This document shows positions 54,388 to 62,807 of a stretch of DNA of 64,000 nt, one piece after another. A program made the translations under genes and the position numbers. The DNA lies in contig CAJWLU010000009.1 in the NCBI GenBank assembly GCA_913043225.1, positions 64,001 through 128,000 on the forward strand. The letters are read 5' to 3'. Within the stretch, counting starts at the first letter, position 1, and each line of letters opens with the position of its first letter. Origin of the DNA: an uncultured Acidobacteriota bacterium. Lineage in GTDB: Bacteria; Acidobacteriota; Vicinamibacteria; Vicinamibacterales; UBA8438. A model generated the notes under the pieces. The model searched no databases. It was not told where the DNA came from and was given only the letters and a program-made list of their open reading frames with translations.

Positions 54388-55341
54388 GTGAAACGCTTCG
54401 TGATTTGCGTGGCGCCGCTGGTGCTTCTGCCCGCCGCGGCCGGGGCCAATGAGACCATAAGTGACTGGATGGGTCGCTCGGCGACATTTGTCGAGGGCAA
54501 GGCCGATTCAGGCGGTGTCGCCATCTCCTATCACGTAGCGGGCGAGGGCCCGCTCGTCATCTTCGTTCATAGCATCTTTGGGCCCTGGTTCGATTTCCGT
54601 CACCAGATGGTGGCGCTATCCGAGACCCACCGGGTGGTTTCTATGTCGACGCGGGGGACCGACCGCAGTGACAAGCCCGAAGGCGTGGAGCACTACGCCA
54701 GTGCCCGGATCGCAGATGACATTAATGCACTGATCGATCACTTCGGTGAAGAGATGGCCACGATCGTCGGACAGGACAGCGGCGGCCTGCATGCCTGGCA
54801 CTTCGCGATGACCCATCCGGAGCGCACGGCGGGGCTGATCTCGCTAGGATCGGTGCATCCGGCTGGGCTGATTCGCGAGCTGATCGACAACGAAGCACAG
54901 CAGCAGTCGACGCAGTTCCAGAACAACATGCTCCAGGACCCACAGGCGGGCGAGCAGTTGTCTGGATTTATCGGTGGTGGACAGATGAACCCGGACGATC
55001 CTGCCGATGTCGCCGAGCTGCGGCGCGACGCCTACTCGCGGCTCGAGGTGGAGTCGATTGTTAATTTCTACAAGGCTAACTGGCCGCGTCCGCCGGTGAC
55101 CGCCGACACGGTCGGGTTCGGGTTTAAGTTGGGCGAGTTCCCGCCCGTGCAGGCACCAACGCTCTTCATCTACGGCGAGAACAGCGGGCCGTTCAAGCCC
55201 GAGACCCTAAACAACATGTGGCAATGGGTCGATGGACCGCTGACGATACAAGTCCTGCCTGGCGTGGGACATGGACCACACACCGAGGCGCCTGAGTTCG
55301 TGACGCCCCGCATCGTGGAATGGCTCACGACCGGGCGCTAA
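54388..55341 (+). CDS. Exported alpha/beta hydrolase, epoxide hydrolase/dehalogenase-like
   Basis: GQDSGG (Asp nucleophile), PTLFIYGE, GVGH. Confidence 0.82.
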   Translation: MKRFVICVAPLVLLPAAAGANETISDWMGRSATFVEGKADSGGVAISYHVAGEGPLVIFVHSIFGPWFDFRHQMVALSETHRVVSMSTRGTDRSDKPEGVEHYASARIADDINALIDHFGEEMATIVGQDSGGLHAWHFAMTHPERTAGLISLGSVHPAGLIRELIDNEAQQQSTQFQNNMLQDPQAGEQLSGFIGGGQMNPDDPADVAELRRDAYSRLEVESIVNFYKANWPRPPVTADTVGFGFKLGEFPPVQAPTLFIYGENSGPFKPETLNNMWQWVDGPLTIQVLPGVGHGPHTEAPEFVTPRIVEWLTTGR

Positions 55342-55394
55342 GAGCGAGCCCGGGTCGTCAGCCTACCAGCGGTGCTTTGGCAAGGAGGAGTGCC

Positions 55395-56393
55395 GTGATT
55401 TATCCTCGACATCCGTTCGCAGCATTTGCGGTTGCCCTGGCTGTGTCGTTCCCGATGACGGCGGTCGCCCAGGACTGGACCGTACCCAGGACACCCGACG
55501 ACCAGCCGGATCTGCAGGGGGTCTGGGCCAACAATAACGTAACGCCGTTGCAACGTCCCGAGGTGCTCGGGGAGCGGACCACGCTGACTGACGAAGAAGT
55601 CGCGGCGCTCCAGTCACGAGCCGGCGAGCTGTTTAGCGACGAATCAGGTGACGCCGCGTTCGGCGACAGCGTGTTCGCAGCGGCCCTGGCTGAAGCCGAG
55701 TCCTTCAGCTCGCGCGATGCAGCCACTGGCAACTACAACCAGTTTTGGATGGTGGAGCGCGAGTGGGACAACCGCACGTCGCTCATTATCGATCCGTCGA
55801 GCGGCCGGCTGCCGGCCCAGACGGATCGCGCGCGGTCGCGCGCGGCCGATCGGGCCGAGGCTCGGCGCCGACACGCGTGGGGACCAGAGGACCGCAGTCT
55901 CGGCGAGCGTTGTATCACCTGGGGCGCGCCCCGCCTCGGTGCCGGCTACAACAGCTACATACAGATCTTTCAGACGTCGACCCATGTCGTGCTCTACCAG
56001 GAGATGGGTGGACCACGAGTTATCCCGATCACGACCGCCAAACACGTAAACGATCGCGTTCGCTTGTGGCACGGTGACTCGAGGGCCCGGTGGGAAGGCG
56101 ACACGCTGGTGGTCGAGACTCAGAACTACTCGCCGAAAGTCTCGATCATGGGTGCCGCCGAAGGTCTGTATATTGAGGAACGGTTGACCCGGGTCAGTGA
56201 CGGCGTCATCGAGTACGAAGTAACCATGAGCGACCCAGACACCTGGGCTGCGCCATGGACAGCGATGATTCCGCTGAGAAGCTCACGCGATCCGGTGTTC
56301 GAGTACGCGTGCCACGAAGGGAACATTGGCATGGACGGCATCATGACCGGCGCGCGCGCGCTTGAGCGCGCCGAGGCCGAGGGCGGGCAGTAG
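55395..56393 (+). CDS. PDLQGxW...ACHEGN family exported protein (paralog 3)
   Basis: AAGGAGG RBS, GTG 55395; family motifs present. Confidence 0.85.
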   Translation: MIYPRHPFAAFAVALAVSFPMTAVAQDWTVPRTPDDQPDLQGVWANNNVTPLQRPEVLGERTTLTDEEVAALQSRAGELFSDESGDAAFGDSVFAAALAEAESFSSRDAATGNYNQFWMVEREWDNRTSLIIDPSSGRLPAQTDRARSRAADRAEARRRHAWGPEDRSLGERCITWGAPRLGAGYNSYIQIFQTSTHVVLYQEMGGPRVIPITTAKHVNDRVRLWHGDSRARWEGDTLVVETQNYSPKVSIMGAAEGLYIEERLTRVSDGVIEYEVTMSDPDTWAAPWTAMIPLRSSRDPVFEYACHEGNIGMDGIMTGARALERAEAEGGQ

Positions 56394-58931: not shown

Positions 58932-60593
58932 ATGAGAATCCAGCAGTGGTGCGTGATCGGTAGTCTGGTGGCCGGAGTCGGGTGCGGCGGGGGCGAGATG
59001 ACCCAAGAGCCGGCTGAGTCGGGTCACAGCCCCGTGGCCAAGACCCGGCACGGTGAGCTCGAAGGCGTGTGGGCGGACGAAGCCGCCGGGATCGCTGTCT
59101 ATCGCGGCGTGCGGTTTGCGCAGCCCCCTGTCGGTGAGTTGCGCTGGCGTCCGCCGATGCCGGTTGAGGCGTGGGACGGTACCGAGATAGCCGACGCGTT
59201 CGGGCCCGCCTGCTGGCAGGCCCGCAATGCCGACGACTCGGTCTACTCCCGAGGCAACCTCGAGCGCAGCGAGGACTGCCTGACGCTGAACGTTTGGAGC
59301 CCGGCCACGGTTGGTCAGTCGCTGCCGGTTATGGTGTGGTTCCATGGCGGTGGGCATACCGGCGGCGTGGGAAGCGCTAAGGTGTTCGACGGCACCGCCA
59401 TGGCTCGGAAGGGCGTGCTAATGGTGACCGCGAACTACCGGCTGGGTCCGCTCGGGTTTCTGGCGCACCCGGCGCTTTCGGCCGAGTCGGAGCATGGCGT
59501 CTCAGGCAACTACGGGCTACTCGACCATGTGGCCACCCTGCAGTGGGTGCAGGACAACATCACCGCCTTCGGTGGCGATCCGGGTAACGTCACGATCTTC
59601 GGTCAGTCGGCCGGATCCTGGTCGGTGTGTGCGATGCACGCCTCGCCTTTGGCGCGCGGGCTGTTCCAGAAGGCTATCGGTCATTCCGGCGGCTGCCTGG
59701 GAGCTCCACGAGCCCATCTAGACGGTGCTGGTGGTAATGCGACGGGACGATCCGGCCATGAGGCTGGGCTGGCAGTGGCGGCCGTGCTCGGCGCTGAGGG
59801 CGAAGATGCCGCGGCGGCGGCCGCGATCCGGGCGGCGTCGCCTGAGGACGTGATGGCGGCGCAGCGCGAGGCGGGTGTCAGGACCGGCTGGCTGGTCGAT
59901 GGCTGGGTGCTTCCCAAGCTGCCGAGCTTGATCTTTGCCGACCGCGAGCAGAACGACGTTGCGGTGATGCTCGGGTCGTTGTCCGACGAGGGGACCACGC
60001 TCTACGCTGGGGTCCCCGAGCTGCCACGAGACGAGTTCGAGCAGAACATCCGCAACCAGTACGGTGGTCACGCGACGGCGCTGCTCACTGCCTACGAAGC
60101 TGACGTGGATAGTTCGACCCGGACCGCCGGTCAGGCCATCCAGGCCGACCGTAGCTTCACCTGGCAGATGAGGGAGTGGGCACGCGCGGTGGCTGGCAGC
60201 AACGACGTCTACCTCTACTTCTTCAGCCATGCGCCCCCGGTGTTCCGGTTGTATCGTCCTGAGGCTCCCGAGCTCAGTGGGTATGAAGTGGGCGACCGCT
60301 CGGCCGGCGCGTACCACTCGGGTGATCTGGCCTTCGCGTTCAACAACGTGGGGCTTGTCGGTGTGGGGTGGGACGACCGTGACCGCGAGCTGTCGGAGGA
60401 GCTGTCGAGCTACTGGGTGAACTTTGCCCGCACGGGCAACCCGAATGGTGACAGACTTCCCGAGTGGCCAGCCTACGACGAAACGGGTGAGCAGGCCATC
60501 GAGTTCGCGACGTCCGGCACCGTACCTACGAGCAAGGTGCGAGCGGACAAACTAGACCTATTCAATGATTCGTATCAGGTCGGGGGGAATTAG
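58932..60593 (+). CDS. Type B carboxylesterase, probable lipoprotein
   Basis: SEDCLTLNVW, HGGG, GQSAG, GAYHSGDL; GVGC lipobox. Confidence 0.93.
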   Translation: MRIQQWCVIGSLVAGVGCGGGEMTQEPAESGHSPVAKTRHGELEGVWADEAAGIAVYRGVRFAQPPVGELRWRPPMPVEAWDGTEIADAFGPACWQARNADDSVYSRGNLERSEDCLTLNVWSPATVGQSLPVMVWFHGGGHTGGVGSAKVFDGTAMARKGVLMVTANYRLGPLGFLAHPALSAESEHGVSGNYGLLDHVATLQWVQDNITAFGGDPGNVTIFGQSAGSWSVCAMHASPLARGLFQKAIGHSGGCLGAPRAHLDGAGGNATGRSGHEAGLAVAAVLGAEGEDAAAAAAIRAASPEDVMAAQREAGVRTGWLVDGWVLPKLPSLIFADREQNDVAVMLGSLSDEGTTLYAGVPELPRDEFEQNIRNQYGGHATALLTAYEADVDSSTRTAGQAIQADRSFTWQMREWARAVAGSNDVYLYFFSHAPPVFRLYRPEAPELSGYEVGDRSAGAYHSGDLAFAFNNVGLVGVGWDDRDRELSEELSSYWVNFARTGNPNGDRLPEWPAYDETGEQAIEFATSGTVPTSKVRADKLDLFNDSYQVGGN

Positions 60594-60610
60594 GCGGACC
60601 TCTGAAGGCT

Positions 60611-60645
60611 GTAGGTCGGCTGGAGCGTAGGCGACCGAGCCGACC
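60611..60645 (+). repeat. GTAG-type REP-like palindrome
   Basis: GTAG-GTCGGCT...AGCCGACC. Confidence 0.45.
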
Positions 60646-60751
60646 CAGCCCACCGTCCCTCCGGGGAGCGCCCAGATCTTAGTGGAGTGGTATCTGCGGC
60701 CAACAGAGGGGCTCCCGGCCAGCAGTTACACCGTCGACGCTAGAGGTGCCG

Positions 60752-61483
60752 ATGACCAGGTGGGTGGATCCGCAGGCGCGCGAAGTGGAAATCTTGATCG
60801 CCCTCGCCTCGTTTGCCGGGCGCGACATTCTGGAACTCGGGTGCGGTGATGGCCGGACTGGACGCCGATTGTCGGAGATGGCCAGATCGGTACTGGCTGT
60901 CGACTCGAACCCCGCGGTGATTGCGAAGGCCGAGGCGGCGGCGCAGGACACCGGTCGCAAGAACTGCCGGTATCTCGTTCACGACAGCGGCGACCTCGAC
61001 CTACCTCCAGAGAGTGTAGACGTCGCGCTCTTTTCCAGGTCCTTGTGATGACACGCTCGTGAGCGCGTCGGTGACGCGCTGCGCCGGGTGCACGGCTGGC
61101 TCCGTCCGGCTGGTACGCTCATCGTGTTCCAGCCGCTGGACGAGCCAATGGCGCTGGCAGTGAGGCGCACGGGCAAAGATCGACCGATGGGGGCCGCGCT
61201 TCACAGCGCGGAAGCCGGCGCGGACATCCGAGCGGCGCATCGGCAAGTGGTGGAGCTCGTGGGGGCCGGAGCGTTCCGCGTGATCAAAGAGACGTCCGCG
61301 GCGCTCGAGGTCCACTTCCGATCGCGCAACGATTGGACCGAGTTCGTCGAGCGTCCCAATACAGGCGAGATCTCGGTGGACTTCGACGACCTGGATCTGG
61401 CACTTGGTGCCGTCGAGCGTGGAGAGGCGTTGCTGGTGGGTACCGAGGAGACGTTCTTTGGCGCCTACGAAAAAGAGGAGTAG
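60752..61483 (+). CDS. Class I SAM-dependent methyltransferase, candidate selenoprotein with tandem Sec-Sec (UU) at codons 99-100
   Basis: ILELGCGDG motif I; VLAVD; SVDVALFSRSL-TGA-TGA-HARERVGDALRRVHGWLRPAGTLIV. The two track ORFs share one frame; a SECIS-like hairpin follows. Confidence 0.75.
61062..61080 (+). promoter_or_regulatory. Candidate bacterial SECIS element
   Basis: Perfect 8-bp stem AGCGCGTC/GACGCGCT with a GGT loop, beginning at the 11th nt after the second TGA. Confidence 0.65.
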
Positions 61484-61748: not shown

Positions 61749-61778
61749 AAACGGGCTCACCGCTGTGGGTGCGCCCGT
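61749..61778 (-). terminator. Probable intrinsic terminator of the 62807-61803 gene
   Basis: ACGGGCTCACC...GGTGCGCCCGT stem with a short T-run on the minus strand. Confidence 0.5.
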
Positions 61779-61802
61779 GAACGTTTCTTCCCGGCGTTGG
61801 TT

Positions 61803-62807
61803 CTACCGCTCTGGTAGCTTCGTGACCTTCTGGGTGTTCAGGTTTCGCGCGCCAGCCATGATCCCGGTCAGGCCGTAGTTTCCCTCGTGGCAGGCGTATT
61901 CGTAGATCGGCCCGTCGGTGCGTCGGAAGGGGATGGCGGCCGACCAGGGCTGGGTGTAGTTGTTCGGATCCCCGATCGTGAACTCGTACATGACCGTGTC
62001 TAGGTCTAGGCGCGTGAACCGCTCGATCAGGTGGGTATCTTGCGACGACCCTCGGAAGTTGGTGGCCTGACGGAAGTTCTTGGTCGCGATCACTAACGTC
62101 TCACCCTCCCAATGGGCGCGTGAGTCGCCGCTCCATTGCCGGATGTCGCTATGCTCGGGGTTCTCGCTGATAGGAATGATCCGGGTGTTGTGAATGTGCT
62201 CGTTGGTGATGGTGAGGTAACCCGGAACCTGGAGGATAAGCACGTTGTTGTTGTACGACCCTGGTCGCATCGGCGGACCAGCGTTCGATCCCATCATGCA
62301 GCGGTCGCCCAGGGTGCGATCCAGGTAGTGGTCGGCGAAGCCGTTCCTGACGTTCAGGCGTCGGATCTGGGCGTCTACCCGGAATTCGTCCGTGTAGGGG
62401 ATCCGGCCGCTCGGCGGATCGGTGACAAGGGACGTCCGCTTGTCACTGGTTAGCTCGATGCCGCGTTCGTACCAGAACTCGTTGTATGAGAGTACGCCGC
62501 CCTCCTCGCGTGACTGATATCCGGCGCTCGGTGCACCCGTCTCCGGGTCGAAGAGATCCCGGTTCAGCCGGGTGCGCTCCGACGCCTCGAAGGCGGCAGC
62601 CTCTTCCGTGCCAAGCCGATCTTTGCCTTCCAGCGAGCCCGGGCGCTCGAGCGGCGTCAAAGTCCGGAACGTGAAAATTCCGGAGATGTCCGGTTGGCCA
62701 TCCGGTGTTCGCATCGGCATGCCGTCACCGCCCGACTGGGCCAGCGCTGGGCTAGCAGCCACCAGAGCTAGAAGGAGTCCGCACGCCGTGGCTCGGATCG
62801 CACGCAT
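61803..62807 (-). CDS. PDxxGxx...ACHEGN family exported protein (paralog 4)
   Basis: GGAGG RBS; PDISGIF, YNEFW, RTSLVTDPP, SYNNN, YEYACHEGN. Confidence 0.85.
   Translation of the reverse strand: MRAIRATACGLLLALVAASPALAQSGGDGMPMRTPDGQPDISGIFTFRTLTPLERPGSLEGKDRLGTEEAAAFEASERTRLNRDLFDPETGAPSAGYQSREEGGVLSYNEFWYERGIELTSDKRTSLVTDPPSGRIPYTDEFRVDAQIRRLNVRNGFADHYLDRTLGDRCMMGSNAGPPMRPGSYNNNVLILQVPGYLTITNEHIHNTRIIPISENPEHSDIRQWSGDSRAHWEGETLVIATKNFRQATNFRGSSQDTHLIERFTRLDLDTVMYEFTIGDPNNYTQPWSAAIPFRRTDGPIYEYACHEGNYGLTGIMAGARNLNTQKVTKLPER

Follow-up and report, generated by a model that had tools for sequence, protein, structure and literature searches.

The window, a stretch of 64,000 nucleotides from an uncultured acidobacterium of the Vicinamibacterales, carries on its forward strand (60752-61483) a gene of 243 codons for a class I SAM-dependent methyltransferase, in which codons 99 and 100 are predicted to encode two adjacent selenocysteines (Sec, U). 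The gene is a single frame closed by TAG, and its sole internal stops are the consecutive TGA TGA codons at 61046-61051. The two open reading frames from which the original prediction had put the gene together (60746-61048 and 61088-61483) do lie in one frame and are split by this TGA pair. A Shine-Dalgarno-like purine run (60742-60747, +) adjoins the ATG on its upstream side, and orthologs begin at the same Met. A sigma-70-type promoter was looked for at the gene and not found, and the single terminator-like site, at 61764-61779, is weak and at chance level.

The upstream neighbor found in the neighborhood survey, a carboxylesterase-family gene (58932-60593, +), is probably not part of the methyltransferase system; it adjoins only five loci, all of Vicinamibacterales type. 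The window also encodes two secreted-type proteins of similar appearance, at 55320-56393 (+) and 61803-62807 (-), the latter with no match in Pfam or NCBIfam.

Reading frame and fold across the UGA pair

The fold is continuous through the site, as had been proposed from the sequence: the Pfam profiles Methyltransf_25, 11 and 12 span residues 26-125 and exceed their cut-offs, PF13649 scoring 59.3 bits against a cut-off of 27 and PF08241 53.8 against 21.2. Two signs of a Rossmann-type domain can be read in the sequence, the glycine-rich SAM-binding motif I (E28 to R35, 60833-60856, +), placed by Pfam and by family conservation, and the acidic residue D52 after strand beta-2. G30, G32, G34 and R35 are conserved in 100% of 100 TGA-bearing family members, a figure that owes something to the design of the search, and D6, E11, D90, S97, L98, G121 and P128 are conserved family-wide beyond motif I.

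The first UGA, codon 99 (61046-61048, +), lies 21 nt ahead of the loop of a downstream hairpin, and the second, codon 100 (61049-61051, +), 18 nt ahead of it. The prediction of Sec at each rests on homologs in which one or both codons specify Cys (C): codon 99 is Cys in CU and CC homologs and the lone UGA of UC forms, codon 100 is Cys in UC and CC homologs and the lone UGA of CU forms, and the hairpin is retained in both one-UGA forms. The 143 codons past the site (61052-61480, +) complete the Rossmann fold and add a C-terminal region specific to the family. This 3' part is not under relaxed selection; dN/dS, measured over 15 close, disjoint pairs, comes to 0.192 upstream of the site and 0.188 downstream of the hairpin.

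Contigs of two further studies carry the site unchanged, so the TGA pair is not an assembly error. One (X2) shows no differences across 60600-61108, and the other (X7), from a strain 96% identical, has no listed difference across 61038-61113; the comparison across the site drew on four of the 21 listed runs. A contig from an RNA library (X17) covers the site at a depth of 2.4, which cannot show transcription. Gene callers do break the gene as anticipated, giving two open reading frames here, while all 13 proteins of the nearest cluster (93% identity) stop at residue 98.

The hairpin downstream of the UGA pair

An in-frame hairpin of the bacterial SECIS type occupies 61062-61080 (+). The perfect stem originally described is confirmed: eight Watson-Crick pairs (61062-61069 with 61073-61080) enclose a GGT loop at 61070-61072, and the structure starts at the 11th base past the second UGA. 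Its folding energy of -12.4 kcal/mol is not unusual against shuffles of this GC-rich DNA (z 0.15-0.67) and is uninformative. The geometry is rare in the host genome. Counted as a G[GU] loop closed by 7 or more pairs at a spacing of 16-37 nt, it was found at 12 of the 4985 places where a coding-like frame ends in TGA, and among the 56 TGATGA ends it was found once, at the present locus. Four others of the 12 resemble, as far as we can recognize from their motifs, known selenoprotein types, and we take them to be one peroxiredoxin-type (UxxC), two UGSC-type and one OsmC-type gene (G000 C1:184963 (+), C28:37738 (-), C28:28737 (-) and C17:68051 (+)). These four sites of the host genome, all outside the window, have an in-frame TGA, a SECIS-type hairpin and an open frame beyond it, and the known-type selenoprotein candidates of this genome thus bear hairpins similar to the one described here.

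Comparison among homologs is more telling than energy. In an alignment of 88 TGA-bearing sequences (87 distinct), 94.8% of stem cells are paired, against 86.0 +/- 0.7% after shuffling and 25-54% when the stem is slid; two-sided stem changes number 72 cells against 20 and are present in all eight pairs. The first base of the loop is an invariant G across the 88 sequences, and RNAalifold recovers the same helix unaided. Kinship among the sequences inflates such covariation counts, so the CC forms provide the stronger control. A metagenome scan for CC forms only turned up 77 loci; 70 belong to the family, and 45 of these are distinct downstream of the site. At least seven of the eight pairs are retained in 83 of 85 and 18 of 20 TGA-bearing genes and in 10 of 10 from Actinomycetota, against one of the 45 CC genes. 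That sole exception (L167), with seven of eight pairs, is probably a recent change from Sec to Cys. The coding sequence bears the mark of the element as well: synonymous choice collapses at codons 104-105, to 0.23 and 0.18 bits, compared with 1.1-1.6 on the flanks.

The published model of bacterial SECIS elements, as set out in the available part of its source, calls for a loop of 3-9 nt, a stem of 4-16 bp, a G in the first two places of the loop, a spacing of 16-37 nt and a minimum free energy at or below -7.5 kcal/mol (PMC13188914). The present hairpin falls within all four of its constraints, with a loop of 3, a stem of 8, G in first place, distances of 18 and 21 nt and the energy given above. 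The likeness to in-frame recoding as described there extends to a UGA followed by a short stem-loop, a 3-nt loop with G first, the 16-37 nt spacing, an energy below -7.5 kcal/mol and the presence of selABCD (PMC13188914). Unlike standard recoding of this kind, two consecutive UGAs here share one hairpin. The position of the hairpin is identical in UU, UC and CU genes, so that one element appears to serve a UGA at either 21 or 18 nt. On this comparative evidence the hairpin is a SECIS.

A family with predicted Sec or Cys at both codons

Among 60 relatives, six carry a homolog, five of them orthologs at 41-48% identity and one at 23%, and in each of the six TGA TGA stands at the equivalent position, with the hairpin after it. 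A wider pattern scan, which admitted TGA, TGC or TGT at both codons and to which other residues were invisible, returned at least 83 family loci among the 120 matches listed (UU 47, UC 24, CU 11, CC 1); membership was set at 90 bits or more, and 37 of the 120 were dropped as chance matches or fragments. The family loci listed come from Chloroflexota, Actinomycetota, Acidobacteriota, Dormiibacterota and Gemmatimonadota, the CC copy being that of an archaeon.

Profile searches blind to the codons at the site, and thereby free of the bias of that pattern, were made in two phyla and centered on known carrier genomes (G070 and G073; G071 also). All 34 full-length matches have an internal TGA, and the 32 that were inspected divide into UU 18, UC 11 and CU 3. 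Chloroflexota contributed 24 full-length matches in 22 of 301 genomes, 16 with two TGA codons, eight with one and none without (UU 14 and UC 8 in the 22 inspected; three short matches were set aside). Actinomycetota contributed 10 matches in nine of 401 genomes (UU 4, UC 3, CU 3), along with two weaker matches that have His-His and lack the hairpin. Two unpublished genomes (G078 and G082) are among those counted, and several others enter the background tallies; the conclusions do not rest on any of them.

Protein libraries present a different face of the family. Among the best 150 library matches, 39 are N-terminal pieces broken off at the site, and the 36 long ones have Cys-Cys (23), Tyr-, Ala- or Val-Cys (3), Trp-Trp (1), a gap (1) or His-His, His-Glu or His-Leu (8). 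The expectation that homologs would have Sec or Cys in every combination at these codons therefore stands for the family, which shows UU, UC, CU and CC, and appears to fail for the one Trp-Trp and the three Tyr/Ala/Val-Cys full-length database homologs. Homologs with His-His and no hairpin, the kind of observation that would have counted against recoding, do occur, but they belong to a sister group at greater distance. In the library profile search the proteins with His score 114-134 bits, against at least 168 for CC proteins, a gap inflated by a profile built from CC proteins. Word-seeded searches with the read-through protein returned no true relative because the relatives are stored as fragments, and three CC proteins came from a search of that kind run with a profile. 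With a natural CC homolog as query, a protein atlas returned clusters of generic class I methyltransferases.

With the two sites left out of its construction, a tree of 155 proteins requires at least 22 changes among UU, UC, CU and CC. One group of 18 CC members nests with CU genes (support 99), amid UU and UC genes. In a thinned tree the UC label clusters no more than in shuffles (179/500), so the second position switches often between Sec and Cys. The root on the His-His group is weak (support 66, with one CC row within the outgroup), and accordingly no order or direction is claimed for these changes.

Several members deserve separate mention. Two family copies per genome occur in G262 (including L227), G332 and G678, those of G262 being two UC copies 5 kb apart. 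Two frameshifted copies, L241 (G167) and L044, keep TGA TGA and the full hairpin, and their frameshifts reflect either assembly error or recent decay. Some CC members (L171, L209 and L211) are adjoined by a second, unrelated methyltransferase with Cys-Cys at the same site after strand beta-4.

The host genome, 96% complete, has tRNA-Sec and selA, selB and selD, all scoring over cut-off, so the machinery sought in the original prediction is in place. Its selD is of the Cys type (L003, G000 C10:21255-22178) and lies inside an open frame of 788 codons, which suggests a fusion. The survey of Sec machinery took in 56 of about 90 carrier genomes; among 55 TGA-bearing genomes, selB was found in 47 and selA in four more, and neither was found in four drafts. 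Neither selA nor selB was found in the archaeon with the CC copy. Such co-occurrence is consistent with recoding but weak evidence, given a high background (65-87%): selB is present in 53 of 61 Vicinamibacterales-type relatives and in 228 of all 301 Chloroflexota genomes (20 of 22 carriers against 208 of 279 non-carriers, p 0.06), and selA in 262 of all 401 Actinomycetota genomes (9 of 9 carriers against 253 of 392, p 0.02, with kin that are not independent).

Taken together, Sec-Sec recoding at codons 99-100 is the predicted reading of this gene, with a probability of roughly 90%. The 243-residue protein with U99-U100 foreseen in the original prediction is supported by the Sec and Cys homologs, the conserved hairpin, the Sec machinery and the equal dN/dS. 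The TGA pair, the hairpin and selA, selB, selD and tRNA-Sec are all present; SelB bound at the one hairpin would then, very probably indeed, deliver Sec-tRNA twice, first at a spacing of 21 nt from the loop and next at 18 nt. The natural UC and CU variants, in which the hairpin has not moved, indicate that each spacing works alone. Engineered tandem UGAs in E. coli fdhF were reportedly decoded at a reduced level by Chen, Fang and Inouye in 1993.

The closest competing account would have one UGA read as Sec and the other passed by a near-cognate Trp or Cys tRNA. The action of bacterial SECIS elements is position-dependent, which would suit such partial read-through, and one database homolog (P0058) has Trp-Trp. 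This protein has downstream residues typical of hairpin-bearing genes, however, and may be a gene call made under another code. Since the UC and CU variants keep the same hairpin with one UGA each, and the alternative residue is Cys and not Trp, this account is improbable. A reassigned code with UGA read as Trp or Gly, for which the two UGAs and the Trp-Trp entry are the whole case, is very nearly negligible: the only tRNA found with a UCA anticodon is tRNA-Sec, many family genes terminate in TGA, selA, selB and selD have no internal stops under table 11, and the residue aligned to UGA is Cys.

It could also be supposed that TGA-TGA is a plain double stop, the 3' part being a separate gene or decaying DNA. 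Callers give two open reading frames, library proteins end at the site, TGATGA ends are common in the host genome, as the count of 56 attests, and a few family copies (L044, L241) are frameshifted. Against this, CC homologs are continuous through the site, conservation extends over the codons that separate the stop from the following start, dN/dS is equal on both sides, a covarying hairpin is present just where UGA is present, and the state persists over several phyla. A split gene is thus more improbable still than partial read-through, and a double nonsense mutation, judged unlikely from the outset, can be rejected along with the pseudogene reading on the strength of the dN/dS, the hairpin, the CC homologs and the spread over phyla. 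The finding extends beyond the one locus, to what is very probably a widespread and apparently uncatalogued family of bacterial selenoproteins, mostly with adjacent Sec-Sec and one shared SECIS.

The predicted Sec pair and its possible role

Alignment to solved class I enzymes places residues 99-100 just after strand beta-4. In class I enzymes the position after this strand usually faces the methyl acceptor. We presume that TMT1, a small class I enzyme, has a Cys near the equivalent site. The Sec-Sec pair would accordingly sit on a short helix beside the methyl-acceptor site, a placement we infer from the alignment.

What the pair does there can be argued in two ways. The selenolates might bind or activate a thiophilic acceptor (As, Sb, Se or Te species, sulfide or a thiol) for methylation, whether by chelation or through a transient bond, a proposal to which we give somewhat less than even odds; the pair may, like the ArsM cysteines though at a different site, alternate with a vicinal diselenide form. 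The proposal draws on analogy with ArsM and on the link of CU and CC motifs to heavy-metal chemistry, noted in the portion available of the report by Haft and Gwadz (bioRxiv 10.1101/2022.07.06.499078). Metal or metalloid binding by the pair, raised in the original prediction, is likewise a proposal, to which the neighboring genes lend no support. On the other reading the enzyme is an ordinary N-, O- or C-methyltransferase, and Sec-Sec serves it as a metal site or as a switch that responds to redox state or selenium supply. This reading is about as likely; its weight is a share of the question of function, the recoding claim being common to both readings.

Several observations point toward a switch or metal site. 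His-His in the sister group points to a generic pair of ligands or of acid-base residues, and Sec and Cys exchange freely at the second position. Solved structures match over the core fold only, and the best relatives are N- and O-methyltransferases. The neighbors are lineage-specific and of a housekeeping kind: alcohol dehydrogenase (15 loci), uracil phosphoribosyltransferase (12), DUF1801 (11), a ParB-domain protein (11) and a lipoyl ligase-like protein (10). On the other side, Sec or Cys occupies both places in all 32 of the full-length codon-blind matches inspected, which suits direct chemistry and the thiophilic-acceptor role.

The survey of neighbors covered 152 loci, with 61 of 90 cluster representatives compared with Pfam. 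It disclosed no conserved operon for the family and no conserved neighbor related to metals, arsenic or selenium; an ArsM-like neighbor occurs in two of the 152 loci and an ICMT-like methyltransferase lies upstream in three. In three related Chloroflexota loci (L039, L063 and L094) the gene adjoins YqeB, a selenium-dependent molybdenum cofactor protein, and in L063 and L094 XdhC and a molybdopterin enzyme are also nearby.

Known families offer partial likenesses. MduS, a methyltransferase family with two Sec residues, had been tentatively suggested as the home of this gene and shares the class I domain. Membership did not hold up: the protein scores 24.7 bits on NCBIfam NF045649 against a cut-off of 380, the model has 338 positions against 243 residues, and the listed CxxU motif is absent, the corresponding residues being Arg96 and Ser97. 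The best E-value of this model among 25 family members is 1.2e-13, and no MduS member over cut-off was found in the five genomes searched. ArsM and its selenoprotein forms (NF008823, NF041536, NF041537 and NF047649) have the same fold, with Cys or Sec that hold the metalloid; the family scores far below their cut-offs, and membership in ArsM is rejected at 15.8 bits against 263, with Arg, in a by-eye alignment, where ArsM has its Cys after beta-4. In the ArsM of the deep-Sep supplement, so far as its available files go, that Cys aligns by eye to residue 96 and not 99-100, and the Sec lies far downstream.

Consecutive Sec-Sec has been predicted from sequence in the algal PDI_e, with its GUGUU motif, which differs in being a eukaryotic thioredoxin-fold protein with a 3'-UTR SECIS; its authors, in the part of the article available, found no bacterial homolog (PMC7539508). 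Vicinal Cys/Sec pairs, likewise met as truncated proteins and linked to heavy-metal chemistry, are described for SaoL, SaoB, SaoC and HgcA in the accessible text of bioRxiv 10.1101/2022.07.06.499078, and these differ in having one Sec per pair, other folds and conserved operons. Small stand-alone enzymes of UbiE/UbiG-like class I type are known in MddH, MddM1/2 and TMT1A/B, which methylate H2S and thiols, with MddM reported in Actinomycetota, Chloroflexota and Acidobacteriota, according to the portions available of PMC11445057 and PMC12904073; these are not selenoproteins, and the comparison with them here is by description only.

No model in NCBIfam release 20 covers the protein, every match shown being far under cut-off (best E-value among 25 members 7e-22, for UbiE). 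The UU motif is absent from the 119 prokaryotic selenoprotein families in Table 1 of PMC13188914, some rows of which list no motif. A term search of the deep-Sep supplements, within the files available, looked for a UU dipeptide following each of the 20 residues and found none, and its positive control worked (PMC12013277). The text and supplement of BSepDB, to the extent they were open to search, make no mention of a methyltransferase (PMC13326102). In the literature searched, some of it available in part, the sole precedent found for adjacent Sec is the predicted algal PDI_e (PMC7539508).

Standard gene calling hides the family as 98-residue fragments, and databases store truncated "UbiE" pieces. 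Recovering it adds a selenoprotein family, present in 22 of 301 Chloroflexota and nine of 401 Actinomycetota genomes sampled. Since insertion of Sec in bacteria is sensitive to how far the hairpin lies from the UGA, two adjacent UGAs with one hairpin test the rule directly, and the natural series of UU, UC, CU and CC forms, with the hairpin fixed or lost, is a ready-made experiment on double decoding that bears also on Sec-versus-Cys chemistry and on the making of multi-Sec proteins in bacteria. In its fullest form the proposal is of a first natural bacterial Sec-Sec family, in which one SECIS would direct two SelB deliveries and a vicinal diselenol active site would methylate metalloids or sulfur or selenium species in soil, sediment and marine bacteria; taken whole, this is tentative and stands at distinctly less than even odds, the substrate claim being much less sure than the recoding claim. 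If the switch reading is true, low double read-through would tie the level of the enzyme to selenium. A vicinal diselenol adjoining SAM would itself be a novel chemistry for an enzyme.
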